Origin: Candidatus Nealsonbacteria bacterium
Lineage (GTDB): Bacteria; Patescibacteriota; Minisyncoccia; Minisyncoccales; CAZKCU01
Assembly: GCA_047456305.1 (NCBI GenBank)
Contig: CP179888.1
Coordinates: 1,690 to 65,689, forward strand
Direction: 5' to 3'
DNA length: 64,000 nucleotides
The position numbers and the translations under genes are program-made. The notes under the pieces are model-generated. The model worked only from the letters and a program-made list of their open reading frames with translations. It was not told the DNA's origin and ran no database searches. This document shows, piece after piece, positions 38,430 through 53,088 of this stretch; the stretch's first letter is position 1, and the number at the start of each line of letters is the position of its first letter.

Positions 38430-38708
38430 TTATTCGCACCCCCACCCATCTCCATCTCTGTCTAAATCAAAAACATCTGGACCAATAACACGAACACGCC
38501 CTGTATAATATGGGCCGTTACCAGATCCACCAGCGCAATCATAATCACTAGCATTTGGATTTAAACAGCCAGAATAGCTTGGGTGGCATTTTTGTTCTGG
38601 AAGAGTAACAGATTCCGATGATTGATTTGACTCGCTCAAGTTAGATATTAATCAAATCAAAAAGCCTATAAACATAAGGGTTAAAATTACCTTATTTATG
38701 TTTGTCAT
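38430..38708 (-). pseudogene. Excalibur calcium-binding-domain secreted protein interrupted by an in-frame TGA (pseudogene or recoded)
   Basis: C-terminus DCAGGSGNGPYY...DLDRDGDGWGCE is the Excalibur motif. ATG at 38708 gives MTNINKVILTLMFIGFLI, then TGA at 38654-38652, then the same frame continues LISNLSESNQ... Confidence 0.6.
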
Positions 38709-38723
38709 CTTTTCTCTTTTTAT

Positions 38724-38945
38724 TTATATTTTATGACACTCTTCATTACAATGTTTACATCCATCTATCTTCCATTCAGGAAAGCGTTTCTTGGCCTCCG
38801 CCATAGCATCTTCACAGTTAGAAAAATCACCAAGTCTAATTCTATTCTCTTGAAGAGGGGCTTCGGGACAATTATCATCTTTATGAATTTCGTGCTCACC
38901 ATGCTCTGGATAGGATTGAGGATTTTTATTTATATAATAAGACAT
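38724..38945 (-). CDS. small Cys/His-rich hypothetical protein
   Basis: 73-aa ORF with CPEAP...C....C.HCNEECH. Confidence 0.45.
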   Translation of the reverse strand: MSYYINKNPQSYPEHGEHEIHKDDNCPEAPLQENRIRLGDFSNCEDAMAEAKKRFPEWKIDGCKHCNEECHKI

Positions 38946-39108
38946 TTTATTAATTTTTTAATTGACAATTTCGACCTTTTTACTAATCCATGTTATCTGG
39001 ACAAACGAATTAGTAATCCAAAAATTGGCTTAAATAGCACTCTCAGGTCTGCCTCGATACTGCTCTGACTCGTGCTGCGGGTAATGAACGATGTTAGAAC
39101 CTGTTTGG

Positions 39109-39531
39109 TTAAATAAGTCCGAGCTTTTTCATCTCTTGAATAACTTCTAATCCTCCTGGACGAAGTTTGTAATCTTTCATCTCCTCTAATCTAACCCACT
39201 TAAAATCATCTGCATCATCTCCTGTTTCAACTTCTTTTCCGTTAGTTTCGCATTTAAATAACAGTATCGTAACGAATGGAAATGTCTTATAATTGTCAGA
39301 AGCTTTATTTTTAAAAACAGTTGAATAAATAAATTTTATTCCAGAGATATCTAAATTAACCTCTTCTTTTATTTCCCTTTTAAGAGCAGAGTCTATTGAT
39401 TCATTTTTCTCAACTATACCACCAGGAAAAAACCACAAACCTTCATGAAATTTACCCTTCTTTTTAACTAAAAGGTATTTATCTTTTTTTTGAATTATTC
39501 CGCTTACAACTATTAATGACTTGTTGTTCAT
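39109..39531 (-). CDS. NUDIX hydrolase
   Basis: Nudix box GGIVEKNESIDSALKREIKEEVNL. Confidence 0.8.
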   Translation of the reverse strand: MNNKSLIVVSGIIQKKDKYLLVKKKGKFHEGLWFFPGGIVEKNESIDSALKREIKEEVNLDISGIKFIYSTVFKNKASDNYKTFPFVTILLFKCETNGKEVETGDDADDFKWVRLEEMKDYKLRPGGLEVIQEMKKLGLI

Positions 39532-39540
39532 ATCTTTCTC

Positions 39541-39575
39541 ATTCTACCAAAAAACCACCTCTATTACCAAGTGAC
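39541..39575 (-). promoter_or_regulatory. P-box (hairpin + T-run + TGGTAGAAT), 9 nt before the NUDIX ATG
   Basis: The minus strand reads ...GGTAATAGAGGTGGTTTTTTGGTAGAAT. Confidence 0.5.
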
Positions 39576-39583
39576 AAATCACA

Positions 39584-39644
39584 GCTCCAGGAGCAGGATT
39601 CTAACTAATAAAAGTCTTAACTCCTCATTGATACGTAGTGCGAC
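39584..39644 (-). repeat. R1 repeat (tRNA 3'-end-like piece + GCATCAATGAGGAG block)
   Basis: The plus strand reads GCTCCAGGAGCAGGATTCTAACTAATAAAAGTCTTAACTCCTCATTGATACGTAGTGCGAC. Related copies lie at 38048, 51064 and 52963. Confidence 0.6.
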
Positions 39645-39772
39645 GGGAATAAAAAAGAGGTCTTTTTTTAAGGACGACCTCATGATATAGGCTTGGCTTC
39701 GAGGGTGGGACGTAATCAGAACTTGGTTTTGGGAGAGGTTTCTGGTGTTGGAACCTAGTTTCAAAAGGCACT

Positions 39773-40528
39773 CTAACGCTTTTGAGCAACGGTAATAAAA
39801 CTTTTACTGTCAAAATTGGGTGCGAATTTTAAAACTTTGAAATTGGCTTTGTTTAGGAATCTTTTTAATTCTTCTGGCGAAAATCCTCTTATGAGATCAT
39901 TAGTTTGATAGATTTTAGATTTTTTACCATCTACTTCAAAAGAGTAGAACCATCTAACAATAGTTGGCTTTTTAGAAATAATATGAAAACTGGAGGTTCT
40001 AGTTATTATGTGCCCTCTATTTTTTACTGCTTCTTCAGGTTTAAATATTTGTTTCTTTAACATTTTTTCAGCTTCAAAGTTGTCAAAGATTAGAACACTT
40101 TTATCTTTTAATACTTTATTAAAGCATTTTAAAGCTTTTTTTATATCTTTATCTTTAACCAAATGAGTAAAAGTCCTACCTATCAAGATTATCGCATCAA
40201 ATCTATCTTTTGTATTTATTTTTCTCATGTCACAGTGAATAACCTTAACATCGGGGTTTATAGTCTTAAAGATTTTATTTAAATCTTTAGAGTTATCTAA
40301 GGCAGTTATTTGAAACCCTTTCTTTTTTAAAATCTTTGTTAATCGCCCAGGTCCACTACCAACATGAAGCACACTTTTAACTTTGTAATTCCTTAAGTGT
40401 TTCTCAAACAACGAAGCTATAACGGGATAGTTCCAATGTTTCTCATAGAATAAATCATAAAGTTCAGCGAATTTGCCTTTATACAAATTTGGTAAAAGCT
40501 GATTTTCGATTCCTTGAAAGATTTTCAT
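39773..40528 (-). CDS. class I SAM-dependent methyltransferase
   Basis: Motif I VLHVGSGPGRLT. 251 aa. Confidence 0.75.
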   Translation of the reverse strand: MKIFQGIENQLLPNLYKGKFAELYDLFYEKHWNYPVIASLFEKHLRNYKVKSVLHVGSGPGRLTKILKKKGFQITALDNSKDLNKIFKTINPDVKVIHCDMRKINTKDRFDAIILIGRTFTHLVKDKDIKKALKCFNKVLKDKSVLIFDNFEAEKMLKKQIFKPEEAVKNRGHIITRTSSFHIISKKPTIVRWFYSFEVDGKKSKIYQTNDLIRGFSPEELKRFLNKANFKVLKFAPNFDSKSFITVAQKR

Positions 40529-40535
40529 ATTCTTA

Positions 40536-40565
40536 ATTCTACCAAAAAACCACTTTCTTGGCGAC
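40536..40565 (-). promoter_or_regulatory. P-box, 7 nt before the ATG at 40528
   Basis: The minus strand reads GTCGCCAAGAAAGTGGTTTTTTGGTAGAAT. Confidence 0.5.
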
Positions 40566-40653
40566 GCTCCTCATTGATGCGTAGTGCGACATAAAAAACC
40601 GCCCAAATAAATAGGGAGAATTGTCAGCTCCCCAGGTGGAACGATTTTAAAAT

Positions 40654-41328
40654 CTATTTCTTGGTCAATACAACGCTGTAATAAACGGGAATCTTTGCTG
40701 GTCCTTTTGAAAAAGCTCTAATTTTGAAATGTCTAATAATTTGATATCCAGTATTATTAAGAATTTTATTTATTTCTTTTTTACTCCTACGATAAAGTTT
40801 AAATTTCATAATATTGGGGGGATTTTTAATATAACCTTCGGCATTGTATTGAACTCTTAATTTTTGCAGTCGATGGTTAGGCAACAATAATTCATAAGTA
40901 AAAATAAAGTATCCATCTGCTTTTAATAATTGATATGTCTCTTTAATAATTCTTTTAATATTCTTTATAAATTCTAATACTCCTACTGCAATTATTATGT
41001 CAAAAGATTTATGTTTGAAATGGAGCCCGGTTAATCCATTGCTAATATTATATTTAAAAGTTTTTACTTCTGGGTATTTCTGTTTAACTATTTGTAGCAT
41101 TTTAGCAGAAATATCCACGGTATAGATTTTACAATTTTTATTTATAAAGATTTTTATACTTTGACCTGTGCCGACGCCTAAATCCAACACTGACGAATTA
41201 TTCTTAACTAATCTAAGTTGTGATAGCGTTTTGTTTACTTCATTCGGGGCAGACCACTTACCCTTTAGAGTGGCTTTGTTGTATTGATTAGCAAGTTTAT
41301 CATTATAAAGTTCAATAATTTTTGCCAT
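40654..41328 (-). CDS. class I SAM-dependent methyltransferase
   Basis: Motif I VLDLGVGTGQS. 224 aa. Confidence 0.75.
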   Translation of the reverse strand: MAKIIELYNDKLANQYNKATLKGKWSAPNEVNKTLSQLRLVKNNSSVLDLGVGTGQSIKIFINKNCKIYTVDISAKMLQIVKQKYPEVKTFKYNISNGLTGLHFKHKSFDIIIAVGVLEFIKNIKRIIKETYQLLKADGYFIFTYELLLPNHRLQKLRVQYNAEGYIKNPPNIMKFKLYRRSKKEINKILNNTGYQIIRHFKIRAFSKGPAKIPVYYSVVLTKK

Positions 41329-41335
41329 ATAATTT

Positions 41336-41367
41336 ATCCTACCAAAAAACCGCCCGATTGGCGATTC
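41336..41367 (-). promoter_or_regulatory. P-box, 7 nt before the ATG at 41328
   Basis: The minus strand reads GAATCGCCAATCGGGCGGTTTTTTGGTAGGAT. Confidence 0.5.
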
Positions 41368-41419
41368 TTGGTAGCTCCCCTAGTGGGATGACGTTAGAAC
41401 CTCTCTGGCAGGAAATTCC

Positions 41420-42079
41420 TTATCTTTTGGTGGCTTCGCAAAGATATGAAATAGGGGTTAACTCCGTTATCTTTACTTTTAAATCAACGGTGTTGAACAA
41501 TTTTTTAAGTTGTAGTTTTGTAAATTGTTCAGAAATTAAACCTTCAGCAGTAACAACTGTTCCATCTCTACCTACTTTTTTAATTTTTACCTTTGTCTTT
41601 TTGTAATTTTCTATTCTAGTTAGTAATGCTTTTTCTGAATATACACTTACAATTATTTTTCCTCTTGGTTTAGCTACCCTTTTCATTTCTTTCAATATTT
41701 TAAGTTTGTCTCTTCCAAAATTGCCAAAAGTATTGCCCATACAAATAACATAATCAAAAGTATTATTTTCGAAATGCATATTCCGAGTATCTTCCAAGAA
41801 TACATTAATATTTCTAAATTTTAGGAGGTTTTTCCTCGCTTCTTTCACTGCCTCTCGGTTGTAGTCAATTCCGCTAATATCTTTAGCAATACCTGCGAGT
41901 AATTTTATGTCTTTACCAAACCCACAACCCACATCTAAAACTCGGCAATTCTTTTTAATGTTTCCTCGAAGCCAGATTCCTTCTTTCCTAATCCAATCTT
42001 TGTATATTGGTGAAGGATTTTTGATGGTCTGTTTCCACCACTTGTGGAAAGAATACTCGGATTGTTTTATATTTTTCAT
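41420..42079 (-). CDS. class I SAM-dependent methyltransferase
   Basis: Motif I VLDVGCGFGKD. 219 aa. Confidence 0.75.
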   Translation of the reverse strand: MKNIKQSEYSFHKWWKQTIKNPSPIYKDWIRKEGIWLRGNIKKNCRVLDVGCGFGKDIKLLAGIAKDISGIDYNREAVKEARKNLLKFRNINVFLEDTRNMHFENNTFDYVICMGNTFGNFGRDKLKILKEMKRVAKPRGKIIVSVYSEKALLTRIENYKKTKVKIKKVGRDGTVVTAEGLISEQFTKLQLKKLFNTVDLKVKITELTPISYLCEATKR

Positions 42080-42154
42080 TTATAAAAATAAAAAAATTTA
42101 TTTTAATATACTCTCTTTTGACTTAAATTTCGGATTTTTTCTATACATTCTTTT

Positions 42155-42188
42155 ATCCTACCAAAAAACCGCCTTCTTGGCGATTTTT
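42155..42188 (-). promoter_or_regulatory. P-box, about 75 nt upstream of the ATG at 42079
   Basis: The minus strand reads AAAAATCGCCAAGAAGGCGGTTTTTTGGTAGGAT. Preceded by S hairpin CTCGGT/ACCGAG at 42196-42214. Confidence 0.45.
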
Positions 42189-42389
42189 GATGCGTCTCGG
42201 TCACCCGAACCGAGCACTAGCCTGCTCCCCAGTTCAAAGCTTAAACGAACTTTAGAGGACTTTGGGTATATGGCGATGGTGAAGGAGAAGCTGAACGAAA
42301 TCAAGATTTCCTGCCGCAATTACGGGATACCCCTGTTTCATTCACCCTCCCCCAATTGAACGCCATTCGAACCTGTTTGATGGAATTAA

Positions 42390-43556
42390 CTACTCCGAAA
42401 CCTTAAAAGTAGAAAGTATTTTATCATACAGCGCTCTATTATCTTGGTTGTCCACATCTAACATACTAATGCTAAAGACTTTATCATTCTTTATAAAGTA
42501 AATATCTTCTTGAGACCAAGCCATGGGTGATTTAGGAGTATAAACTTTTACAGCTGGTATGCCGTCTATTTCTGTATTTATCTCATCGGGAATATCTTCG
42601 TAGTATGAGTAATTTTCCTTAACCCAACTAACAAGGTCTGTTCCCGCAGGCGGACTATAATAATCAACATAAACAGAATGGAAAACAACAAATGAAGCAC
42701 CGGTTAAATCAGATTTTGTGCCAGTAAAAGTTCCCAAAGATACCTCGTCTGGATTTTCAGCATTGAAGTAGCACAAACATTCTCTGGGTCTTTCTTCTGG
42801 TGGACTTTGCTTGCAATAACCTGGCAAAGGACCAAAAAGACAATTTTCAGGATATTTCAAAGAATATCCATATTTTTCATTCGTATAATTATTCCAATCA
42901 GCGGTTAGGTCTATGGTTATCTCTAACTTCCCGCATTTCACTGTTACATCTTTGATATCAGGTTCTTGCGGAGTAGACCCTCCAGAAACAGTACAAACAA
43001 TCTGGTCTTTTTTATATCCCACTAATCCAGTAAAGAGGCCGTCAGCTATATTGTAAAGATCTAGCTCAAAACCTCTATCTATCAAAAAAGACTCAACGCT
43101 GTCATACTGCTCGCTTGACATGCGTGTAGCTTTAAATCCTTTTCCTTCTATATCCACTTCTTCTACTTTTGGATCTACTTTAACCACCCATTTCAATTCA
43201 ACTGGTTGTATCTCTGAAAAATCTATCCCGGTTTCTTGTTTGAGGTCTTCTAAAAGAACTGAAACTTCATCTAAAGATACGCATTCGCTTCCATTAAAGC
43301 ATTTATCAGGTCCGCAATCGCAAATCTTTACCTGATGACTATTATCTGGTGAACAACCACAAGGACCAATAAGGCACAAGTTAGGAAAATCACCAGTTGC
43401 TTTACAACACAATGATATTGATACTTGCCCTCCAGAGTCTACGCAAGTTTGTTCTTTTCCGCTTAACTCTTCGGGTGTTATCGTTGACTGATAAATCCAG
43501 TAACCTAATCCTACAATAACGATTATAATAATGATTGCAATTATTATTTTTGACAT
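42390..43556 (-). CDS. membrane-anchored/secreted protein with Cys-rich N-terminal region
   Basis: N-terminal TM segment IIIAIIIIIVIVGLGYWIY, then a cluster of about 12 Cys. 388 aa. Confidence 0.5.
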   Translation of the reverse strand: MSKIIIAIIIIIVIVGLGYWIYQSTITPEELSGKEQTCVDSGGQVSISLCCKATGDFPNLCLIGPCGCSPDNSHQVKICDCGPDKCFNGSECVSLDEVSVLLEDLKQETGIDFSEIQPVELKWVVKVDPKVEEVDIEGKGFKATRMSSEQYDSVESFLIDRGFELDLYNIADGLFTGLVGYKKDQIVCTVSGGSTPQEPDIKDVTVKCGKLEITIDLTADWNNYTNEKYGYSLKYPENCLFGPLPGYCKQSPPEERPRECLCYFNAENPDEVSLGTFTGTKSDLTGASFVVFHSVYVDYYSPPAGTDLVSWVKENYSYYEDIPDEINTEIDGIPAVKVYTPKSPMAWSQEDIYFIKNDKVFSISMLDVDNQDNRALYDKILSTFKVSE

Positions 43557-43599
43557 ATTGTTTTTTAATTAAAGTTATTTACTACGACCTTTCATTTCC

Positions 43600-43634
43600 A
43601 TTCTACCAAAAAACTGCCTGATTGGCGATTTTTT
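43600..43634 (-). promoter_or_regulatory. P-box, 43 nt upstream of the ATG at 43556
   Basis: The minus strand reads AAAAAATCGCCAATCAGGCAGTTTTTTGGTAGAAT. Confidence 0.45.
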
Positions 43635-43700
43635 GATGGCTCGCACCGATACATTAAAAGCGTCCAGGTGCTGGCGAACGATGTAAGAAGCTGGGTTAAA

Positions 43701-43744
43701 TGAAAAAGGCGAGGTATTAGCGAATCTTACGATTCTTCCTCGCC
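43701..43744 (-). terminator. intrinsic terminator
   Basis: Stem GGCGAGG/CCTCGCC (43708-43744). TTTTTCATTT follows on the minus strand. Confidence 0.5.
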
Positions 43745-43804
43745 TGCTGCATAAACAGGAGGGTAGAAGTTGCTGTGGACTTCATATTTAGTTAGAATGA
43801 AATA

Positions 43805-43954
43805 TCAGTGTGAGCGTTTGAGTATCTTCTTTATAGTCTTCTTTATCCAGTTAAAGGGATCAGGAGTTGACAATGCCTGTTTCTCCCAGCAATCAGGATA
43901 GGGGCATTCCCTTGGTGGATAGCCATGTGAACAAAGGAATTCTGGACTCGCCAT
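43805..43954 (-). CDS. 49-aa Cys-containing protein (below the ORF-track cutoff)
   Basis: Hand translation gives MASPEFLCSHGYPPRECPYPDCWEKQALSTPDPFNWIKKTIKKILKRSH. SD AAGGAGGATGATTAA precedes the ATG. TTGACT-17-TAATAT lies upstream near 43990-44030. Confidence 0.35.
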   Translation of the reverse strand: MASPEFLCSHGYPPRECPYPDCWEKQALSTPDPFNWIKKTIKKILKRSH

Positions 43955-44180
43955 TTAATCATCCTCCTTCTTATTTTGATATTAAGAACTGTAAATTGAT
44001 ATTATCATCTTTTATAAAAAAAGTCAACTTAATTAAAACCGTCCAAAAGGGCGGTCAGAAAGCGACAATGCTCCCCCTATTGGACGCATTTAGAACTCTG
44101 GATTTGATAGGAATTAGAGAAGAGTTAGAAATTTGGATGCCCAATTTAACAAAGGGCGGACAGTGTTAGAACCCGGTTTT

Positions 44181-44211
44181 ATAAAAAATCAAGCCCGAGA
44201 ATGGGCTTGAT
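44181..44211 (-). terminator. intrinsic terminator of csp copy 1
   Basis: Stem ATCAAGCCC/GGGCTTGAT. A T-run follows on the minus strand. Confidence 0.65.
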
Positions 44212-44242
44212 TTTCATCTATCTGATTTTGCTGAGTTAATTC

Positions 44243-44440
44243 TTAAATGCGAGTTACGTTTGTTGCGTTGGGTCCTTTTTCAGAATCAGCCTTCTCAAAA
44301 GACACCCTGTCGCCTACTTTTAACTCTTCGTAATTTACGCCCTTAAGTTCATTTTTGTGAAAAAACAAATCTTTTTCTTCACCATCAACGGTAATAAATC
44401 CAAATCCTTTATCTGTAAGGTTTTTAATTGTTCCTTCCAT
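44243..44440 (-). CDS. cspA: cold-shock protein (CspA family), copy 1
   Basis: GTIKNLTDKGFGFITVDGEEKDLFFH carries the RNP1/RNP2-type motifs. 65 aa. Confidence 0.9.
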   Translation of the reverse strand: MEGTIKNLTDKGFGFITVDGEEKDLFFHKNELKGVNYEELKVGDRVSFEKADSEKGPNATNVTRI

Positions 44441-44930
44441 GATTATAGTTAAATATAGATTAATTTAATTAATGTTTTAAGGTTTTATCCTAAAGTTTAG
44501 TTCCCTGAATAAACTCGACTAAATTTTTATTAGACAACTATCTTATTCGAAGAAGATTCCTTCTTCTCAACCTTCGCTCGGCTTCGCCTCGCTCGGGTAT
44601 GTAAATAAGATTAACATTTAAAAAACAATTCGTCAACCTAAAAAATTAAGGCTTGAAAAATCGTGGCTTGGCGATTTTTGGGTGTCTGTTTTAATAAATA
44701 ATTAAACCTATTTAGTAGGATTTTCTTAATTTTTTCTTATCGTTCACTTTTTCTTTGGTTGTTTTCTCCTTCGTTTTTTTAACTTCCTATTAAGTCTTTT
44801 TTGGTTATGCCATCCTATACCCATGTTTTTTTTACTTTTTACTTTTATTAGTTATATTATGACCTTTTATTTATTTTATCAAAAAACCGCTTTCTTGGTG
44901 AGGCGGCATTCCACAAATAGAGAATATTGA

Positions 44931-45173
44931 TTACTCTTTGTATGGAAGAACTTTTAGTGCTTTTTTAACATCATTCTCAGGAACTAAAAGAAAAACTCCT
45001 TTAGGAGGAGGAACGGCTGAAGAACCAAAAATACCAGATGCTTCACTTTTTATCAAAACAGAAATACCATGTTTTTTAAGTATTGTAGCCACCATTTCTG
45101 CCTCGGGGCGTGAAGCATAGTTTGCTATCTTCTTAAATTTAATGGGTGAGTTCTTTTTATTTTCCTTTTTCAC
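44931..45173 (-). CDS. DUF2007-like small protein (putative signal-transducing protein fold)
   Basis: RPEAEMVATILKKHGISVLIKSE... pattern. GTG start 6 nt after a TAGAAT box. Confidence 0.45.
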   Translation of the reverse strand: MKKENKKNSPIKFKKIANYASRPEAEMVATILKKHGISVLIKSEASGIFGSSAVPPPKGVFLLVPENDVKKALKVLPYKE

Positions 45174-45179
45174 ATTCTA

Positions 45180-45214
45180 ATTCTACCAAAAAACCACCTT
45201 CTTGGCGATTTTTT
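45180..45214 (-). promoter_or_regulatory. P-box, 6 nt before the GTG at 45173
   Basis: The minus strand reads AAAAAATCGCCAAGAAGGTGGTTTTTTGGTAGAAT TAGAAT GTG. Confidence 0.5.
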
Positions 45215-45220
45215 ATATTT

Positions 45221-46546
45221 CTACAAAAAATACCTCATCATCAAGGAAGCAACACTAAAATAGATAACTAAAGTAACTATGTCACTAATAATAGTAGCAA
45301 AAGGGCCTGCTGCTAAAGCAGGATCAATATTTAGTTTTTTCAACAAAAAAGGAAGAGAGGTGGCGAAAAATGTAACAACCAGAATACCCAGAAACATGGA
45401 AATACCAATAATTAAACCAAATAGAGGAGGGCCCCAACCCAAGGCTACAGCCAGGGAAATAATGGTTCCACAAATTATTGCAATAGCGAAACCTATTTTT
45501 AACTCCCTCAGAAAGTACTTTTTTATTCGAAATTTCGGTTCTAAAGCCATAGCTCTTATTGTAATAGTTTCTGATTGAGTACCCATAGCATCGCTCATAT
45601 AGACTAATACCGGCATAAACATAGCTAAAGTTATATAAGAACTTAGAGTGTGTTCAAAAAATCCTACAATCCAAGCAGCGACAATTCCTCCCATGAGTCC
45701 AATTATAAGCCAAGGAAGCCTTGCTTTAACCATTAGATTAGCTGGAACACCCACTAAACTATCTACCGGAGTGGTACCAGACATAAGGGCTATATCTTCA
45801 CTGGCTTCCTCTTCCATAACCTCCATAGCATCGTCTGCTGTTACTATTCCCAAAATCTTATCTTCTTTATCTACAACTGGAAGGGCAAGCAAATTGTAAT
45901 CTGTAATGAGATTTGCCGCTCTTTCCTGATCTGTCTTCGGAAGAACCTTTATTACTTCTGCCTGCATTATATATTTGAGTTTTTCTTTTGGATTAGCGAG
46001 AATGAGTTGTCTTAAGGATAAAACCCCCACCAATCTCCTTTTATCATCAACTATATAAACATGATAAACAGGATGGTCTTTAGCTTTTTCCCTAATATAT
46101 CTTATTGTTTCTTGAACAGAAATTTCCTCATTTAAAGCTATAAACTCAGTAGTCATTAAACCTCCAGCTGTTTTGGGGGGATATTTTAATAAAAATGTCA
46201 CCTCTTCTATTTTCTCTTTGCTAAATTCTCTTAAAATCTCTGTTCTTTTTTTAACCGGAATATTTTGAAGGATGTCAACTATTTCATCTGATGGAATTTT
46301 GGAAAGTAATTCAGCAGCCTTTTGAGATGTTAAAGAACCAATGAATCCCCCCTTCACCTCTTCTGATAATTCTGGCAGTAGTTTCACAAGCATCTTGAAA
46401 GATAATTGTGACAATATTTTATTTCTCGTCCCTTTTTGGGTTTCTTCCAAAACCAAAGAAAAATCATGGGGAGGAAATTTTATACCTATCTCTCCCATTT
46501 CCTTCCAACCTTTCTTCTGTATTAATTTTCTCAGTTTCTCCAACAT
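45221..46546 (-). CDS. mgtE: magnesium transporter MgtE
   Basis: N-terminal MgtE_N helices, a CBS pair and a C-terminal 5-TM domain (..PVLVYMSDAMGTQS..DPALAAGPFATIISD). Confidence 0.9.
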   Translation of the reverse strand: MLEKLRKLIQKKGWKEMGEIGIKFPPHDFSLVLEETQKGTRNKILSQLSFKMLVKLLPELSEEVKGGFIGSLTSQKAAELLSKIPSDEIVDILQNIPVKKRTEILREFSKEKIEEVTFLLKYPPKTAGGLMTTEFIALNEEISVQETIRYIREKAKDHPVYHVYIVDDKRRLVGVLSLRQLILANPKEKLKYIMQAEVIKVLPKTDQERAANLITDYNLLALPVVDKEDKILGIVTADDAMEVMEEEASEDIALMSGTTPVDSLVGVPANLMVKARLPWLIIGLMGGIVAAWIVGFFEHTLSSYITLAMFMPVLVYMSDAMGTQSETITIRAMALEPKFRIKKYFLRELKIGFAIAIICGTIISLAVALGWGPPLFGLIIGISMFLGILVVTFFATSLPFLLKKLNIDPALAAGPFATIISDIVTLVIYFSVASLMMRYFL

Positions 46547-46814
46547 AGAATTTATTTTTTCTTGTTTTTGATTCGCCGGTGTTCAAGACGGGTGGCTAAA
46601 CCCCAAAACCGGCGAATTTGCCTGGTAATTTTAACTGATTTTTTCTTAAATAAAGTCCGGGGAGGCCGTTTTTTGGGCAGGTCTTTTATCTTATATTTCT
46701 TCATTATTTTAATTTAACTTATTTTTGGCTTTTTATCAATCTTGAAAATTTTTGATAGAAAATAAAAAAACAACCTACCAAAAAGACGGGCTGCTTAAAA
46801 TTTTGTTATAAATT

Positions 46815-46937
46815 TTATTTATGCTTTCTTTTGCTTGCCTTAGCTTTAAGCATAAGCCGCTTTATTTCCAATCGTTTCTTGGTTTTATGAGAATGTGATT
46901 TCTTATGCTTTCCGACTCCTGTACTTCTTTTTGCCAT
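46815..46937 (-). CDS. 40-aa highly basic peptide (below the ORF-track cutoff)
   Basis: Hand translation gives MAKRSTGVGKHKKSHSHKTKKRLEIKRLMLKAKASKRKHK. TAAAAT lies 6 nt before the ATG. Composition is ribosomal-protein-like but no family was recognised. Confidence 0.3.
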   Translation of the reverse strand: MAKRSTGVGKHKKSHSHKTKKRLEIKRLMLKAKASKRKHK

Positions 46938-47076
46938 ATAAGTATTTTATTAATATGAATTAATTTGACTCCTTATTTAAGACTATATAATATAAGGCAG
47001 AAACAATCAATCTTAATTAAAAAAAGCCTCCTTGGCGATTTTTATTGGCTTCCCCTGTTGTGATTTTTTATAATTC

Positions 47077-47295
47077 TTAAATTTTTTGGGTTTTCTTAAT
47101 ATTTTCTTTTTCTTTAGAACTTAAAGAAGTAAGCCATAAAATAAACGGCCTGCGAAGTTTATCTAAAGACCAATCATCGTCTTTAAAAAGCGAAGTTTTC
47201 TCTATCCTAAAACGTGAAAGCAAAGACGTTGTCGCCTGCAGGTTTAAGGGAGATAGTTTATTATGTTCTGATAAAAATCGCTGTTTTTTAGTCAT
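47077..47295 (-). CDS. hypothetical protein
   Basis: ATG at 47295 (MTKKQRFLSEHNK...) lies inside the track ORF. Confidence 0.3.
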   Translation of the reverse strand: MTKKQRFLSEHNKLSPLNLQATTSLLSRFRIEKTSLFKDDDWSLDKLRRPFILWLTSLSSKEKENIKKTQKI

Positions 47296-47414
47296 TTGCC
47301 AAGCTTTTGCGCGCAAAAGCGAAGTGAAATAAAAGCAACTCTACTCTCAACTTCTACTTTATATAATACGCTTATTTTTTTAAAAAAGCAATCCTTATAA
47401 ATTATTTTGATCCG

Positions 47415-47455
47415 CATTAAAATCAAATCCCGCTTCACGCGGGATTTGATTTTCA
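47415..47455 (-). terminator. intrinsic terminator of csp copy 2
   Basis: Stem AATCAAATCCCGC/GCGGGATTTGATT. Confidence 0.65.
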
Positions 47456-47481
47456 TTTATTTGATCTTACTGAATTAATTC

Positions 47482-47679
47482 TTAAAGGCGAGTTACGTTT
47501 GTTGCGTTGGGTCCTTTTTCAGAATCGGTCTTTTCAAAAGACACTCTATCACCTACTTTTAACTCTTCGTAACTTACATCCTTAAGTTCATTCTTGTGAA
47601 AAAATAAATCTTTCTCTTCGCCATCAACGGTAATAAATCCGAATCCTTTTTCTGTAAGAGTTTTAATTGTTCCTTCCAT
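47482..47679 (-). CDS. cspA: cold-shock protein (CspA family), copy 2
   Basis: Differs from copy 1 at only a few residues. The flanking 5' leader is also duplicated. Confidence 0.9.
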   Translation of the reverse strand: MEGTIKTLTEKGFGFITVDGEEKDLFFHKNELKDVSYEELKVGDRVSFEKTDSEKGPNATNVTRL

Positions 47680-47845
47680 ATTATAGTTAAATATGAATTA
47701 ACTTAATTAATGTTTTAAGGTTTTATCCTAAAGTTTAGTTCTCCGAATAAACTCGACTAAATTTTTATTAGACAACTATCTTATGTAAATAAGATTAACA
47801 TTTAAAAGTTGACCAGTCAACCTAGAGAAATTAAGGTTTGAGATT

Positions 47846-47907
47846 CTGCTCCGGCGGCAGGACTCGAACCCGTCTCGGTCGCCCAGAACCGAGCACTAGC
47901 CTGCTCC
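47846..47907 (-). repeat. tRNA 3'-end-like fragment fused to an S hairpin module
   Basis: The minus strand reads CCGGAGCAGGCTAGTGCTCGGTTCTGGGCGACCGAGACGGGTTCGAGTCCTGCCGCCGGAGCAG. No D or anticodon arm is present. Confidence 0.55.
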
Positions 47908-48021
47908 GGAAAGAAAATATCATCAAACCTTTTCAATAACCCTGCCGAATTTAATCCACCAATCCAAGAAAAAGAATTTACGCTGACTCCTCCCCTACCC
48001 TGATTCCGTTGCTTAGGGTTC

Positions 48022-48771
48022 TTATTCTCCTTTAATTTTTTTTACAAGTCCCATCAGCTCGACCGGAAACAAAATTGTGGTATTGGGTTCTTTGGCAGCT
48101 TCCGCTAATGTCTCAAGGTACCTTAAGGTAATAGGGTCAGCGCTTAAAATTTCTCCAGCCTCTTTCAGTTTTTGAGCAGCCAGATATTCACCATCAGCTA
48201 AAATAATTTTAGCCCTTTTCATTCTTTCTGCTTCAGCCTGCTTGGCAATAGCTCTTTGCATTGCTTCGGGAATTTCCACATGCTTTACTTCCACGGCTGT
48301 CACTTTTATCCCCCAAGGATCAGTGGCTCGATCAATAATGTCGTGGAGTTTTCGATTAATCTTTTCTCGTTCAGCTAAAAGCTCATCTAAGGTTGAAGCC
48401 CCAACCACTCCCCGCAAAGAGGTTTGAGAATTCTGGGAAGTAGCCATCATATAATCTTCTACTTCGATGATTGCTTTTCCCGGATCAGAAATCTTGAAGT
48501 ACAAAACAGCATCAACTTTTATGGGAATGTTGTCTTTAGTAATCACTTCTTGGGCCGGGACATCGAGAGTTAAAATTCTTAGATCTATTTTAATCATCTT
48601 GTCGATAATGGGGATTATTAGGAATAACCCGGGACCTCTAATTCCAGCAAATCTTCCCAACCTAAAAATCACTCCTCTTTCATATTCTCGAGTAATCTTT
48701 ACTGCCTGAGGCAGAATTATCAAGGCGATGATAATTACCCCTACCCAACTGAAAAGTAAATTTGCTAACAT
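48022..48771 (-). CDS. SPFH/band-7 (stomatin-like) membrane protein
   Basis: N-terminal TM segment, then an SPFH core (EYERGVIFRLGR...TKDN..I.VDAV..) and a coiled-coil AEAERMKRAKI. Confidence 0.85.
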   Translation of the reverse strand: MLANLLFSWVGVIIIALIILPQAVKITREYERGVIFRLGRFAGIRGPGLFLIIPIIDKMIKIDLRILTLDVPAQEVITKDNIPIKVDAVLYFKISDPGKAIIEVEDYMMATSQNSQTSLRGVVGASTLDELLAEREKINRKLHDIIDRATDPWGIKVTAVEVKHVEIPEAMQRAIAKQAEAERMKRAKIILADGEYLAAQKLKEAGEILSADPITLRYLETLAEAAKEPNTTILFPVELMGLVKKIKGE

Positions 48772-48798
48772 AATAATTTAGAATTTATGATTTCGAAT

Positions 48799-50085
48799 TT
48801 ATATTTTTTTCACTATGAGGGTGTTTCCCTCAACTTTTACTATCTCGACCTTTAACTTTTTGGGAATTATTTTTTTATCAAAACTTTCAGCTGACCAAAT
48901 TTCTCCTTTAATCTTAACCTGCCCCAAAGGATTAAGGATTTTAACAACTTCAGCTTGAAGTCCAATCAGGGCCTCGGGTCCAGTTTTTGGTTTGACTCTA
49001 AGTGTTTTGGCTACTCCTCTACCTATAATAACAAAAAAGATACAAATAGATAGGACCGCTCCAATAACTACCATGGTCATTGCCTCAAAGAAACCAGGAG
49101 TTAAAAATGGTTCGGCCTCAAAGGTGAAAATTCCTAAAACAATAGCGATTGCTCCCCCAATGCCAAAAATACCAAAACCTGGTTCAACAAAAATCTCCAT
49201 CATTAAAAGAAAAAGGCCGAGTAAAATTAAACCAATTCCTAAAAAACTAAAAGTAATTACCCCCATTCCCCAAAGGCCGATTAAAAGGGCTATTATTCCA
49301 ATAATACCACTTATTTCAAATTCCCCTGCCCGAATGGCCATAATAATTGCCAGCCCGCCAATAGTCAAAAGAAAAGATACCAAATAAGGATGAGAAAGAA
49401 AATCAAAAAATTTTTCAGAAAAACTAGGCTTAATTTCTCTTATTTTAGGCCCTGAAATATTAAGTTTTAAAAAAAGTTCATCTAAGGTTTTTGCTGTCTC
49501 ATCTGCAATTCCAATTTCTTTTGCTTCTTTGCCGGTCAGAGTAAGATTTTCCCGAACAAATTTTTCAGCAACTTCGGCATTTCTCTGATGGATTTCAGCT
49601 AAACTCTTTATCCAGGAAGCTGTCCCCTCAATCATCTTTTGGTCAACTTCTATTGTTTCCCCGATTATCTGTCGCGGTTGAGCTGCTCCAATTGAAGCTT
49701 CGGGATGCAAGACAGCAAAATCTGCTGCCAGCAAAATAAAGGTGCCGGCTGAATAAGCCCAACCCCCCTCTTTGTGGACAAAAACAATAGTTTTTGTTTT
49801 AGTTTCCAGCATCGAATCAACTATATCCTTAGTTGATTTTAAAAGGCCACCGGGGGTGTCTAATTTGATTACTAAAAATTCTGCTTTTTCTTCCTCGGCC
49901 AGTTTAATTACTCTTTTTAAATATTGATGGGTCCCAGCCCTAATTTCACCCTCAATTTCAGCAAGATAGGTTAACTGGCCCTCTGGCTGACTGTTAACTT
50001 CTTGTAACGGTAACAAGAGATTAAAGAATAATAATCCTAAAATAATCAAAAAAGCTAATTTTTTTAGAAATTTAATTTGGCTCAT
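48799..50085 (-). CDS. NfeD-like membrane-bound ClpP-class serine protease
   Basis: Periplasmic ClpP-like domain (IKLDTPGG...AYSAGTFI), a multi-TM block and a C-terminal NfeD OB domain. Classic pairing with the SPFH gene. Confidence 0.8.
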   Translation of the reverse strand: MSQIKFLKKLAFLIILGLLFFNLLLPLQEVNSQPEGQLTYLAEIEGEIRAGTHQYLKRVIKLAEEEKAEFLVIKLDTPGGLLKSTKDIVDSMLETKTKTIVFVHKEGGWAYSAGTFILLAADFAVLHPEASIGAAQPRQIIGETIEVDQKMIEGTASWIKSLAEIHQRNAEVAEKFVRENLTLTGKEAKEIGIADETAKTLDELFLKLNISGPKIREIKPSFSEKFFDFLSHPYLVSFLLTIGGLAIIMAIRAGEFEISGIIGIIALLIGLWGMGVITFSFLGIGLILLGLFLLMMEIFVEPGFGIFGIGGAIAIVLGIFTFEAEPFLTPGFFEAMTMVVIGAVLSICIFFVIIGRGVAKTLRVKPKTGPEALIGLQAEVVKILNPLGQVKIKGEIWSAESFDKKIIPKKLKVEIVKVEGNTLIVKKI

Positions 50086-50422
50086 TTTTATTATTTGGCT
50101 AAAAATAAAAACCCGCTTTGATCATAGCAGGTTTTTTGTTAAATAAAAATTGCCCAGCAAATGAGTTTCCTCAATTTGGCTGGGCGGCTCGGTCCCCCGA
50201 ACACCTCACTAGCCTGCTCCGGGGGACGGACGACATTCGAACCTACTGGAACACCACAAAGGAGTATTTTGAGATACCAGGCGACTTCTCCGTAATCTAA
50301 CCTTTCCCTACTAGTATGTGAGAATATCTTACAGGATAGTTATTTTGCTTACTTTGGTCTTTTTTGGTAAAATAAACAAAGAAAGGTCGCTGATATTCTA
50401 CATCTATTAAAAATAACAAAAC

Positions 50423-50989
50423 ATGATTTTTTCTCTTATTTCGCGTCTCGTTAACGGTGTAAGAGGAGGGGTTAAAGCCGGTTTGGAAGGGGTTAGTGAT
50501 ATTGGTAGTGCTATTGTTAACATTGTAAGAAATACAGCTGTCACAACATTGAAAGAAACAGGAGAATTTGTTGGCAAAGGTATCGAAGCTTCTGCCTCGA
50601 TAGTAAAAGGTGCAATTTCTGGGGTGACTGATGTTGGCGCATCGGTGGTTGGAACAATTAGTGGTATTATAAAAGGAACTGTCCGTGGTGTTATAGAAGG
50701 TGGAGGAAAACAAGAAGAGGCTGTCCGTGGAGCTATATCTCAAGCAGTATATAGTGCAAAAGAGTTAGGAATAAATATTGGTGAGGCAGCAGTCGAGGCA
50801 GTAAAAGGTTCAATTGAGGCTATCAAAGAAGTAGGTGGTGATACACTTAAAGCAACGAAGGAAGCTGTATCAGCTGCCATAGAGACCGCTGAAGATATTG
50901 GTGGTGAAACAGCAGAGGCAGTCAAAGGTTCGCTTGAGAGTAGCATCGAAGGAGCTAAAGAAATTATTGAAGCAACAAAGAAAGAATAA
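50423..50989 (+). CDS. Ala/Gly/Val/Glu-rich repetitive helical protein
   Basis: 188 aa with recurring G.[IV].A...[IV]KG.I.G / EAVKGSIEA units. The only + strand gene in a minus-strand region. The overlapping minus ORFs look like shadows. Confidence 0.5.
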   Translation: MIFSLISRLVNGVRGGVKAGLEGVSDIGSAIVNIVRNTAVTTLKETGEFVGKGIEASASIVKGAISGVTDVGASVVGTISGIIKGTVRGVIEGGGKQEEAVRGAISQAVYSAKELGINIGEAAVEAVKGSIEAIKEVGGDTLKATKEAVSAAIETAEDIGGETAEAVKGSLESSIEGAKEIIEATKKE

Positions 50990-51063
50990 TTATCATTAGG
51001 CTTTCTTCTCTCTTTTAAAATAGACACTCAATTCGAATTGGGTGTTTATTTATTTCGCTACTC

Positions 51064-51126
51064 GGCTCCGGCGGTAGGACTCGAACCAATAATGGTCTTA
51101 ACTCCTCATTGATGCGTAGTACGACG
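51064..51126 (-). repeat. R1 repeat (tRNA 3'-end-like piece + GCATCAATGAGGAG block)
   Basis: The minus strand reads CGTCGTACTACGCATCAATGAGGAGTTAAGACCATTATTGGTTCGAGTCCTACCGCCGGAGCC. Confidence 0.6.
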
Positions 51127-51176
51127 TAAAAACCGCCAAAAAAAGGCGGAATTTTCGGTCCGAGGGACGGACGATA

Positions 51177-51644
51177 TTAGAACCTATTTTCTTTATTAAT
51201 ATAGTTCTTTATAGCTTTCTCACTGGGGAAAAACATAGGTTGGGGTAAGACATACGGGTCAAACCATCTCCATTCAGTTATTTCATCAGGTTCCATAACT
51301 TTAGGCTCTCCTTCAAATTCTTCTGCAAGGAAAACTATTGTTACAAAATGAGCATCTTCAACAACATCATTAGTAACACTAACTATTTTTATTCTATCTT
51401 TGTTTATTTTAATTCCTGTTTCCTCATAAACTTCTCTGTAAGCACATCCTGGAATACCTTCTTTAAAATCGAGTTTGCCTCCAGGTAAAGTCCAAGTTCC
51501 TTCTCCATGAAGTAAGCTATCTGCTTTTTCAGGATCTTCATGTCTTTTGCCAAGTAAAAGTTTGTTATCCTTAAGAAGTATTACTCCAATCCCTACCCTT
51601 GGTTTTTTATTAAAACCTTCCATGATATTATTTTGTTTCATCAA
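51177..51644 (-). CDS. NUDIX hydrolase (MutT-like)
   Basis: Nudix box GGKLDFKEGIPGCAYREVYEETGI. Confidence 0.8.
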   Translation of the reverse strand: MMKQNNIMEGFNKKPRVGIGVILLKDNKLLLGKRHEDPEKADSLLHGEGTWTLPGGKLDFKEGIPGCAYREVYEETGIKINKDRIKIVSVTNDVVEDAHFVTIVFLAEEFEGEPKVMEPDEITEWRWFDPYVLPQPMFFPSEKAIKNYINKENRF

Positions 51645-51933
51645 GGATTATTTTTTCTTTAAAACCGCCTCTTTTCTGATTTTTTTCTTCTCTTAAAAAC
51701 TCTAATTCTTCTTTTTTGATTCCTTTAAACTGACAAATTGCATAGATTACTTCCAAAATATCAGCAAGTTCTTCTTTATTGCTTTCTCCTAAGAATTCTT
51801 TAACCTCTTCTTCGAGTTTTTCTTTTAGCTTCAACCAGTATTCTTTATCATCAGCAATATGAGTTATTGGAATGTCTCTTTTTTGCTTGATAATCTCTGG
51901 AATTTTGTCTCTTACAAGTTTATTGTATTTCAT
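51628..51933 (-). CDS. MazG-like nucleoside triphosphate pyrophosphohydrolase
   Basis: MKYNKLVRDKIPEII...EELADILEVIYAI pattern. The second ATG (51933) is preferred because the first overlaps the TAGAAT box. Confidence 0.7.
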   Translation of the reverse strand: MKYNKLVRDKIPEIIKQKRDIPITHIADDKEYWLKLKEKLEEEVKEFLGESNKEELADILEVIYAICQFKGIKKEELEFLREEKNQKRGGFKEKIILDETK

Positions 51934-51940
51934 ATATCTC

Positions 51941-51974
51941 ATTCTACCAAAAAACCGCCTTCTTGGCGATTTTT
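51941..51974 (-). promoter_or_regulatory. P-box, 7 nt before the ATG at 51933
   Basis: The minus strand reads AAAAATCGCCAAGAAGGCGGTTTTTTGGTAGAAT. S hairpin CTTTCG/CGAAAG lies just upstream (51975-52014). Confidence 0.5.
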
Positions 51975-52190
51975 GATGCCTTTCGGTCGCTCGAAAGACT
52001 CACAAGCCTGCTCCGTATACTTAAAATAGTTCGAACATTTTTCGCCGCCTGCGGCGGCGAGGAACCCCCAAAAAAAATCGGAGCGGCTTCGCCACGATAT
52101 TTAACAATCTCAGGTTTCTTTGGCGGCAAATTCTTTTTTAAAAAAAGAAAACCAGTTGTTAGGTACAACTGGTAAAACCTTAAATTTGTT

Positions 52191-52505
52191 TCAGGCGACC
52201 ATCCAAGCAAAGCCGGTTTCTGGTATCCAAAACTCTAATCCTATTCCAGTAAACAGATTTGTAATCATTCTCATTTGGGAATCTTCCGGAAAAGGATCTA
52301 AGCCGGATTCGAGATTAAATGCAACCCAGTTATTCAAGGTAACATACTGTAGCATGCCCATTCCAAATTCTCCAATTATCTTCTTGCATTCTTCTGCGGA
52401 AAGTACCTTAACATTTGAAATGGGAAGCCATTGACTAACCTCTTCTGTTAAAACCTCTGCGACAGCTTCACTTCTTTCGCCCGCGTTCGTTACAATAACT
52501 CTCAT
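52191..52505 (-). CDS. hypothetical protein (104 aa)
   Basis: ORF with SD AAGGAGG. The SD lies inside the hairpin CTCCTT-CGCCG-AAGGAG (52512-52528). Confidence 0.4.
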   Translation of the reverse strand: MRVIVTNAGERSEAVAEVLTEEVSQWLPISNVKVLSAEECKKIIGEFGMGMLQYVTLNNWVAFNLESGLDPFPEDSQMRMITNLFTGIGLEFWIPETGFAWMVA

Positions 52506-52962
52506 TTTGTCCTCCTTCGCCGAAGGAGTAAATTACTATAACGAACATTTTTGAAAAGAACCGTTCCAAAAATGTTCTGGTGTCCCTCGGCAACTCCACC
52601 CTTGTATCGATTCCTTCTTTATTCTTTTGCAAGAACAGGGAGAAATCTGAGTAGAGACGCCCCTCAATTGCTTCTGTACCCTATAAAAAGCAATTGAGTC
52701 TGAAATTGCCACCGAACTTTAACAATTCCAGTATCCACAACTTTCTGTTTTATATTATACATCCATTCAAATAACTTGTCAAGCCCATAACAAAAAACAG
52801 AAATCTCTATAAAATTTCTGCTCCATTACATGAAAAATTTTCTTTTACTCTTCCGCTTTAGCGGAATACGAAATCGCCAATTGATTTTTTCGCCTAAAAC
52901 TCCGTTCAATTTGGTCGCCGAGCGAAGCGAGGCGACCCACAAATCGTTGACTTTTCCTTACT

Positions 52963-53017
52963 GGCTCCGGCGGTAGGACTCGAACTAATAAAAATCTTGA
53001 CTCCTCACTGATGCGCT
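52963..53017 (-). repeat. R1 repeat copy
   Basis: The plus strand reads GGCTCCGGCGGTAGGACTCGAACTAATAAAAATCTTGACTCCTCACTGATGCGC. Confidence 0.6.
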
Positions 53018-53065
53018 AAGGGATTATTAGTCCTACAACATAGATTGAGCGGCTCTAAAATAAAA

Positions 53066-53088
53066 ATTGCCCAGCGATGGGCTTTTTA
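53066..53088 (-). terminator. terminator hairpin after uppS (usable from both strands)
   Basis: GCCCA-GCGA-TGGGC flanked by A-run and T-run. The leader AAATAAAAATTGCCCAGC recurs at 50141. Confidence 0.45.

Follow-up and report, generated by a model that had tools for sequence, protein, structure and literature searches.

Accessory-gene cassettes probably form a hypervariable array framed by lineage-wide mosaic intergenic repeats in a Candidatus Nealsonbacteria genome

Bacteria of the candidate phyla radiation (CPR, Patescibacteria) have tiny genomes with few recognisable mobile elements, and their gain and loss of accessory genes is poorly understood. Mosaic intergenic repeats are familiar as the bacterial interspersed mosaic elements and repetitive extragenic palindromes (BIME/REP) of enterobacteria and as the BOX elements of Streptococcus pneumoniae, and in Neisseria the Correia elements are repeats that supply promoters or terminators, and 'minimal mobile elements' are exchanged by homologous recombination in their flanks after transformation. 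Genes for tRNAs are classic targets of integrases. Also close to the present case are integron arrays, the tRNA-anchored islands (tycheposons) of Prochlorococcus with their scattered partial tRNAs (bioRxiv 10.1101/2020.12.28.424599), and putative mobile promoters, including promoter propagation (PMC3488235, PMC3575422). Here, we describe 64,000 nucleotides of a Candidatus Nealsonbacteria bacterium (contig CP179888.1; hereafter, the window), in which the genes between 37.6 and 53.1 kb are separated by a small set of recurring intergenic modules. This region is probably a hypervariable array of insulated accessory-gene cassettes framed by mosaic intergenic repeats that are spread across the lineage.

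The modules comprise a 30-nt element (hereafter, P-box), a 17–21-nt motif with a 17-nt core (module a, AGGTTCTAACATCGTCC), module b (GGAGCAGGCTAGTG), and module e (AAATAAAAATTGCCCAGC), all noticed in a preceding sequence-only reading, together with modules d (GTCGCACTACGCATCAATGAGGAG), d3 (GTTCGAGTCCTACCGCCGGAGC, resembling the 3' end of tRNA-Asn), and a2 (CCCTTAAAA..GGTTCnAGACCGA), which were separated here. In the module scan of the window, all matches lie within 37,612–53,081 on the minus strand, which is the gene orientation, and none were found in the prophage (1–27 kb) or in the core genes at 53–64 kb. Module a has seven minus-strand copies at ≤3 mismatches (37650, 39086, 41386, 43676, 44158, 50228, and 51169; 0.14 expected) and weaker copies near 42361 and 39703 that were recognised by eye, and the P-box has five copies at ≤3 mismatches (0 expected) and 8–9 under looser matching. 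Module b occurs four times (42215, 47894, 50207, and 52001) and module e, a terminator by terminator scoring, twice (50141 and 53058). The sequence-only reading had placed module a right after stop codons, with one TAA (ORF 51177–51644) inside the module, had noted that GGAGCAGGCTAGTG and AAATAAAAATTGCCCAGC recur, and had seen GCATCAA leading into the P-box; all of these observations were reproduced, the last at 42190 and 51975. Placement relative to gene ends is not random: in related loci, module a (145 copies) follows a co-directional open reading frame (ORF) in 124 of 135 cases (92%) and lies inside ORFs in only 3 of 145, and in 162 of 172 cases the ORF after a P-box is co-directional with it.

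Similarly to BIME/REP and BOX elements, these modules are short, intergenic, gene-polar, arranged in a fixed order, located in transcribed DNA, and lineage-specific, and they may influence termination or expression. They differ in the predicted complete terminator–promoter fusion and the tRNA-half-like motifs, and in their concentration in a hypervariable array rather than dispersal (window and four sister loci). A clear GTAG-plus-palindrome unit was not seen, module b having TAGTG ahead of a weak hairpin, and the window showed no gene for a REP-associated tyrosine transposase (RAYT). Compared to Correia and minimal mobile elements, the sequences are unrelated, terminal inverted repeats are absent, and the proposed joints are the repeats rather than core-gene flanks. 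None of the compared systems unites a (predicted) terminator-fused leaderless promoter with tRNA-half-like 3' motifs around single-gene cassettes across a CPR lineage, and our literature search found no description of a CPR promoter, leaderless, or repeat system of this kind.

The P-box consists of an A-tract, a GC-rich hairpin, and a T-tract, followed by an extended −10 element (TGGTAGAAT). Its hairpin (AAAAATCGCCAAGAAGGCGGTTTTTT; −11 to −11.5 kcal/mol, z −3.1 to −3.9 compared to shuffled sequence) is followed by T6, GGTAGAAT stands directly after this putative terminator, and a promoter scan returned TCGCCA-17-TAGAAT with an upstream TG. The element thus carries the sequence hallmarks of an intrinsic (rho-independent) terminator (GC-rich hairpin plus T-tract) and of an extended −10 sigma-70 leaderless promoter (TGnTAnnnT, ATG about 7 nt downstream, no Shine–Dalgarno sequence). 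Related loci contain 227 T-tract/GGTAGAAT sites, 171 of them with the canonical hairpin; 39 of 55 non-canonical sites hold a hairpin of unrelated sequence at the same place (minimum free energy ≤ −6), with a mean of −8.8 versus −4.3 for shuffled sequence. Because the stems are unrelated and the hairpin is retained, structure before the T-tract is what is kept, as for a terminator, and the same variants disfavour the hairpin as a protein operator. An ATG opening at least 50 codons lies within 40 nt of 130 of 199 P-boxes, and in 88 of these 130 it stands 6–9 nt past the −10 hexamer, the usual distance from −10 to transcription start, so that the mRNAs would be leaderless. Ribosome-binding sites of the GGAGG type stand before other genes of the window, which also contains a canonical TTGACA-17-TATAAT promoter; the P-box is therefore a special signal class and not the sole one. 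A second, leadered class is formed by promoters with AAAGGTC 5–8 nt after the −10 (13 of 227 P-type promoters, 0.6 expected; in the window at 43590–43600 and, on the plus strand, 50385–50395), which have AT-rich leaders of 25–50 nt without a Shine–Dalgarno sequence, possibly carrying tiny MKG.. leader ORFs.

A scan with the P-box pattern recovered at least 117 loci, almost all from Nealsonbacteria/Parcubacteria metagenome-assembled genomes (MAGs) among the matches listed, and DNA related to the window was, again among the matches listed, almost solely from Candidatus Nealsonbacteria, Parcubacteria, and Paceibacteria MAGs. The P-box is also carried by CP179887 and CP179889, two closed genomes of the benzene-degrading consortium DGG-B. 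The same modules fill intergenic spaces in >100 Nealsonbacteria/Parcubacteria assemblies, and module matches number 459 in 810 kb of these loci versus 4 in 878 kb from other bacteria. Among 2.9 million viral contigs there were no matches to the P-box and one to module a. We therefore rejected a phage-borne ('moron') origin, for which the modules are too nearly absent from viral contigs and entirely absent from the adjacent prophage.

To compare gene content, five close relatives were retrieved from metagenome contigs by an uppS-based scan. One of them (L118) shares 98.8% DNA identity with the window across pyrG and 95.4% across uppS, and the others (L119, L120, and L121/L092) share 88–94%. Every one of them loses its homology to the window at module e, just past uppS (53,038–53,108), and gene content then differs: rubrerythrin-like and desulfoferrodoxin-like genes follow in L121/L092, an SPFH-like gene and others in L120, a 158-aa ORF in L118, and again different content in L119. 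The sister loci contain no modules in 38.5 kb upstream of uppS and 17 or more in about 11 kb downstream. All sister contigs (L118–L122 and L092), including one of 279 kb, stop 1–4.4 kb after uppS, as expected of a repeat-rich, strain-variable region, and contig breaks within this array seem to be a systematic feature of assemblies. L121 joins a further locus (L086) with 100% overlap, and the array is only about 3.5 kb in that genome, between uppS and xer/gltX, compared to at least 15 kb in the window.

Near-identical cassettes were found in different contexts by an all-against-all comparison of loci, in which blocks were taken between different species representatives. The L024/L060 pair shares 1178 nt at 99% identity, a stretch that opens at CGGAGC shortly before the P-box and closes with CCGGAGCAG, where d3 ends, with CGGAGC on both sides and unrelated DNA outside; in L024, this cassette is flanked by two d3-type direct repeats. 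The final base of the module a core is also the final base of the L007/L120 block (1146 nt, 97%), and the L052/L110 block (657 nt, 92%) likewise stops exactly after that core; the one shared by L044/L091 reaches from GGGAGCAGG to a point within module a. For genes of the window, similarity to the L084 homologue of the NUDIX gene at 51177 ends after module a, and the L024 homologue of the methyltransferase at 40654–41328 is shared from the −10 through the stop codon. The secreted protein gene (42390–43556) is itself a mosaic of two sources that switches near 42,910, with the P-box and the N-terminal 180 codons at 86–88% identity to L024/L098/L110 (L024 88%) and the C-terminal half at 76% to L052. 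Spacers are homogenised within genomes, as in L062, where a 156-bp repeat with 97% identity runs from the tRNA-Gln end to the promoter. Together, these observations show that the modules form the seams of this mosaic. The sequence-only reading had left open whether the units were serially acquired or duplicated expression cassettes or belonged to a lineage-specific BOX/REP-like mosaic family, and both are supported together: the repeat family by the spread of modules across Nealsonbacteria/Parcubacteria MAGs, and the cassettes by the different gene content of sisters after uppS and by the near-identical cassettes in different contexts.

At the 3' side, the order is stop codon, module a, and terminator hairpin. 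RNAalifold on 20 complete spacers predicted the terminator hairpin and no consensus structure for module a or the tail behind it, so module a is a primary-sequence motif, and a conserved RNA fold for it was rejected. Conservation of its core is the same within and between genomes (0.85 vs. 0.83), whereas the following 14 nt are genome-specific (0.52 within vs. 0.39 between; 0/300 permutations). In length and form, this tail (..CCCCGGAGCA, ..AGCCCCAGC, ..CCGCAGC) corresponds to the 3' strands of a tRNA T-stem and acceptor stem, as in the tRNA-Gln and tRNA-Asn ends of related genomes. A resemblance to these tRNAs, in the region of T-loop and acceptor 3' half, extends to modules a, a2, d3, and b. 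GGAGC is about 7-fold enriched 0–30 nt upstream of P-boxes. Genes for tRNA-Gln or tRNA-Asn make up 20 of 35 tRNA genes in loci selected by the P-box and 8 of the 10 tRNAs with a P-box ≤300 nt downstream, and in L062 and L025 the arrays begin directly after tRNA-Gln. Tails match the resident tRNA no better than foreign tRNAs (5.96 vs. 5.60 of 9, not significant for same-locus versus cross-locus comparison), which led us to reject them as copies of the resident tRNA 3' end; together with a 5-nt insertion in the 'T-loop' of module a that is unlike real tRNAs, this argues against simple att-site copies. The likeness to tycheposons lies in hypervariable regions beside tRNA genes of streamlined genomes, scattered partial tRNA 3' sequences, and differences between close strains. 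Here, in contrast, the units are single genes without integrases, the repeats reach into a shared promoter, and the tRNA-like pieces have diverged (the 5-nt insertion) yet are conserved across species with no preference for the resident tRNA.

Module b occurs after genuine tRNA-Gln genes and pseudo-ends alike, and reads GGCTAG, the complement of CTAGCC in tRNA-Gln, followed by a T-arm-like hairpin (CTCGG-TTCGAGCGA-CCGAG). The sequence-only reading had proposed that this hairpin varies in sequence while its pairing is kept. Across 30 copies from many genomes, the register it had used (CTCGGT/ACCGAG) is 80% paired with zero compensatory changes, and a shifted register (TTCG..CGA(G/A)) that unites both hairpin classes is 83% paired, with compensatory changes in two of seven pairs (three sequences each) and a covariation score reached in 4/500 shuffles. 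The four window copies are no more stably folded than shuffles (z 0.0 to −1.4), and the 'hairpin' at 50191 is a different stem that encloses GGAGCAGGCTAGTG. Module b is accordingly regarded as conserved mainly in sequence, and the indication of a selected RNA fold is weak.

From these features, we propose that the P-box ends the upstream transcript and restarts the next one on or beside the ATG, which would yield leaderless mRNAs; with each unit terminated and restarted in this way, cassettes would be insulated and expressed wherever they landed. The 3' modules (a, a2, d3, and the GGAGC/CAGC tails) would be unstructured sequences that derive from tRNA-Gln/Asn genes (T-loop and acceptor 3' half) or imitate them, and the remaining modules optional fillers: d, b with a T-arm-like hairpin, and e as a small terminator. 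Because every cassette of the lineage carries the same 20–45-nt modules, these would serve as joints for exchange, duplication, and reshuffling, and the tRNA-like motifs would record an origin at tRNA-Gln/Asn genes. For the exchange itself, our tentative preference is RecA-type homologous recombination between the short shared modules, following uptake of DNA, rather than a dedicated site-specific recombinase, because blocks end at several positions and repeats span whole spacers; of all steps, this is the least firmly grounded. Several points weigh against the cassette-array reading. The related loci were mostly chosen via the P-box, so that their frequencies are biased, with L118–L122 and the window as the unbiased set; promoter, terminator, and leaderless function are read from sequence statistics; and the equal conservation of the module a core within and between genomes implies a constraint outside the model. 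Furthermore, a universal module makes block ends at its edges expected without locating a crossover or demonstrating that recombination acts on the modules, mis-binned MAG contigs could inflate sharing between 'different species', and modules of 17–45 nt are short substrates for RecA.

An integron- or island-like alternative assigns the tRNA-3'-half mimics (a, a2, d3, and the GGAGC tail) to a trans-acting tyrosine recombinase, as sites at any of which cassettes, excised as circles with a 'left module-GGAGC-linker-P-box' junction, would insert, starting from tRNA-Gln/Asn genes. We consider this unlikely, although no other reading would account as well for the strict polarity or for the conservation across species of the module a core, which resembles that of a protein-binding site. 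The start of arrays at tRNA-Gln/Asn, the fixed-orientation tRNA-3'-like motif that closes each cassette, the CGGAGC on both sides of the L024/L060 cassette with its d3-type repeats, and the precedent of partial tRNAs in tRNA-anchored islands of Prochlorococcus (bioRxiv 10.1101/2020.12.28.424599) fit such sites as well. Like integrons, the locus has arrays of co-oriented single-gene cassettes, a conserved 3' site for each, and rapid turnover. On the other hand, identity with integrons was rejected, since there is no IntI, no attC-type imperfect hairpin (module a and tail are unstructured by RNAalifold, a general model rather than one specific to attC), and no common Pc, each cassette having its own predicted P-box or extended −10 promoter. 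The only recombinase of the window (28049–29005), encoded in convergent orientation where the array is farthest from uppS, is Xer-like: it scores 92 bits against the integron integrase model (TIGR02249, cut-off 265), and its best models are XerC/XerD/XerA. Arrays otherwise lack a recombinase, and recombinase genes as regular array neighbours were rejected, because L086 alone of 122 related loci has a homologue. Block ends at two or more positions (after the module a core; before or after GGAGC) do not indicate one crossover, the repeats, unlike att cores, continue well beyond the end of the tRNA and take in b and promoter sequence, one cassette is inverted, and the lack of resident-tRNA preference and the 5-nt insertion in module a apply here too.

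The a2 copies at 30.7 and 38.3 kb also fit such sites. They are direct repeats around a 7.6-kb LexA-methylase (restriction–modification) block near the recombinase and prophage, and in a sister genome the same a2 with its inverted tRNA-Gln fragment is immediately followed by two Xer-like genes and gltX. The larger, a2-bracketed blocks may plausibly have arisen by classical tandem integration at an att site of tRNA-like sequence; the a2 pair with the inverted tRNA-Gln fragment looks like attL/attR of an integrated island beside the prophage, and an att-remnant reading is possible for the 7.6-kb block and the prophage. Single cassettes, by comparison, show neither direct repeats of a resident tRNA nor an integrase of their own. 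A tmRNA gene at 38.04–38.42 kb, suggested by GGGGCTAGGATTCGAACC and TTAAGACGG-like strings as a source or integration hot spot, was rejected: GGGGCTAGGATTCGAACC at 38.3 kb, read on the opposite strand, is simply a tRNA-Gln 3' end (GGTTCGAATCCTAGCCCC), Rfam gave no tmRNA match even at E ≤ 10, and ARAGORN made a badly paired permuted call at the 80% threshold only. Nor do Rfam and ARAGORN assign a tRNA or tmRNA fold to the modules. It is quite doubtful that Nealsonbacteria and related CPR own an integron-analogous capture system with leaderless-promoter cassettes, tRNA-3'-half-mimic sites, and an Xer-like recombinase acting in trans, in which tRNA-Gln/Asn would seed arrays and cassettes would cross species. 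A dedicated recombinase, if one does act on the tRNA-like sites, would make the locus a new system of cassette capture.

It is improbable that the repeats themselves move, as selfish elements (miniature inverted-repeat transposable elements (MITEs), REP, or BIME) or 'mobile promoters' inserting between resident genes that stay in place. The L062 mosaic stands upstream of unrelated genes, spacers that are otherwise homologous can have or lack module b (window 52 kb vs. L072), tail and b variants are genome-specific (GGATAGTG in L021, GCAGT in L039), and promoter propagation of such a kind has been described (PMC3488235); what the locus has in common with mobile promoters is that highly similar promoter-containing segments precede unrelated genes, in one genome as well as across genomes. 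It differs from them in the terminator fusion, the putative leaderless starts, and the matched 3' modules that frame whole cassettes. No terminal inverted repeats (merely a 6–7-nt resemblance of GGTTCTAAC to the complement of GGTAGAAT) or target-site duplications are visible, block ends included, the window revealed neither RAYT nor transposase, the strict gene-relative polarity is atypical of MITEs, sisters differ in genes and not in spacers alone, and whole cassettes are shared at 97–99% identity. Least probable is a role at the RNA level, in which a and b would be tRNA-like folds in 3' untranslated or inter-cistronic regions, and enzymes of tRNA processing (RNase P/Z, CCA-adding enzyme) or an RNA-binding protein would recognise them to process or stabilise cassette mRNAs: the modules do lie on the transcribed strand between stop codon and terminator with T-loop-like GGTTCGA motifs, and the T-arm-like stem CTCGG/CCGAG of b has a few compensatory changes, but RNAalifold predicts the terminator hairpin only, b folds like shuffles with none of these changes in the original register, the acceptor 5' strand is missing, Rfam and ARAGORN give no match, and transcripts would stop at the T-tract rather than at GGAGC.

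Read as an array of exchangeable cassettes, the locus represents a sequence-defined architecture for gene turnover in CPR, with variability that reaches strains 98.8% identical in adjoining core genes. The P-box is a candidate strong promoter/terminator pair for a lineage without genetic tools, the array repeats explain assembly breaks at such loci, and the motifs are searchable, giving access to the flexible genome of these organisms in metagenomes.

In the direction of transcription (minus strand, from 53.1 to 37.6 kb), the array opens directly after uppS with module e (53058–53081), a terminator hairpin (GCCCATCGCTGGGC and AATTTTTATTT) that is the last position syntenic with the sisters and the point where similarity to L118, L120, L121, and L092 stops. 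A d-like segment with the d3 tRNA-Asn-like 3' fragment follows (52964–53025), without the tRNA 5' half and without a tRNA call by ARAGORN or Rfam. Next comes a perfect TTGACA-17-TATAAT promoter (52782–52754) with a leader of about 245 nt and a 104-aa ORF (52191–52505); the leader (52506–52782) may act as a riboswitch or be otherwise regulatory, and Rfam gave no match for it at E ≤ 10. The spacer at 51975–52095 joins a left module (..GTTCGAACT..TACGGAGC) to b (class II hairpin CTTTCG/CGAAAG) and GCATCAA; in L072, the same left module runs directly into the P-box, b being missing. A P-box with perfect consensus (51941–51970; hairpin −11.5 kcal/mol, z −3.9; TGGTAGAAT with ATG 7 nt downstream) then precedes the MazG-like/NUDIX cassette (51177–51942), whose NUDIX gene has its TAA stop inside module a (51169–51185). 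Pfam supports the earlier labels of two NUDIX proteins, three class-I S-adenosylmethionine-dependent methyltransferases, and DUF2007 in the array, but 'MazG' had no Pfam or NCBIfam match.

Behind this cassette lie a terminator (CCGCC-T7-GGCGG), d (GTCGTACTACGCATCAATGAGGAG), and d3 with its tRNA-Asn-like 3' end (51065–51149), and then the inverted cassette (50353–51059, plus strand; gene 50423–50989), which has its own T-tract/GGTAAAAT promoter and AAAGGTC leader and is 81% identical to L089. Upstream of nfeD, one spacer (50107–50244) holds module a (50228–50244), b (50175–50220), e (50141–50164), and a terminator (50107–50136), and at 47848–47907 module b is directly joined to a d3 tRNA-like 3' end (GGTTCGAGTCCTGCCGCCGGAGCA). 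A cold-shock protein gene with a long 5' leader is present in two copies (44207–44558 and 47446–47796, minus strand; 90–92% identity), with 3.2 kb between them and mgtE in the middle. The DUF2007 cassette (44931–45173) is preceded by a P-box (45180–45209), and the secreted/membrane protein gene (42390–43556) by a degenerate module a (43676–43692) and a P-box (43600–43629) with an AAAGGTC leader after its −10.

The three methyltransferase genes show the range of spacer forms. An a-variant (AGGTTCGAATGGCGTTC), a 140-nt insert, b (42192–42228), GCATCAA, and a P-box (42155–42184) make up the 42155–42377 spacer before the gene at 41420–42079; a minimal spacer of module a, GGGGAGC tail, and P-box (41336–41402) stands before 40654–41328 (82% identity to L024); and module d is fused to the P-box (40536–40597) before 39773–40528. 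Two degenerate a copies, a terminator, a d plus d3-like segment, and a non-canonical hairpin with GGTAGAAT (39541–39761) precede the NUDIX gene at 39109–39531, after whose stop codon module a follows (39086–39102). At the distal end, a2 (CCCTTAAAA..TTCCAGACCGAGGATGCCA; 38275–38423) abuts the inverted tRNA-Gln 3' fragment (GGTTCGAATCCTAGCCCC; 38299–38316, plus strand), the second a2 copy lying at 30644–30768 (minus strand), and the array closes at 37612–37666 with module a (37650–37666) and an inverted P-box hairpin with a poor −10. Between them, three GAGGAG-containing repeats akin to module d (38040–38300, minus strand) are followed by a tRNA-Asn-like 3' end (38048–38079) and a strong terminator (38021–38039); this segment may be a small RNA gene, and has no Rfam match.

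The window as a whole has a GC content of 0.33–0.38. Its first 27 kb (1–27300) are a prophage-like block of higher GC and strong purine skew, with genes for a portal protein with a Mu-F domain (5540–7648), a capsid (10726–12081), and a tail tube (17839–18780); the window begins within this block, so that its left end is outside. The recombinase gene follows, and minus-strand genes then fill about 29 to 64 kb, including a lexA-methyltransferase fusion, mgtE, SPFH/nfeD, uppS, pyrG, and one tRNA-Lys (57984–58056), which was the only match of Rfam (gathering threshold and E ≤ 10) and ARAGORN in the window. In 35273–37502 (minus strand), a LexA repressor (above the TIGR00498 cut-off) and a CcrM-like N6-adenine DNA methyltransferase share one ORF, which would be an unusual repressor-methylase fusion, and the unannotated 256-aa ORF that follows may encode a restriction enzyme. 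The low-GC block at 29–36 kb contains two more local repeat families (32395–35268), TTTCCTCAACTTCGGGCTAAATTTTAGTTATTT in five copies and TAATTTTATTTCTCAATTAATT in four, which are a shared-flank set separate from the array modules.

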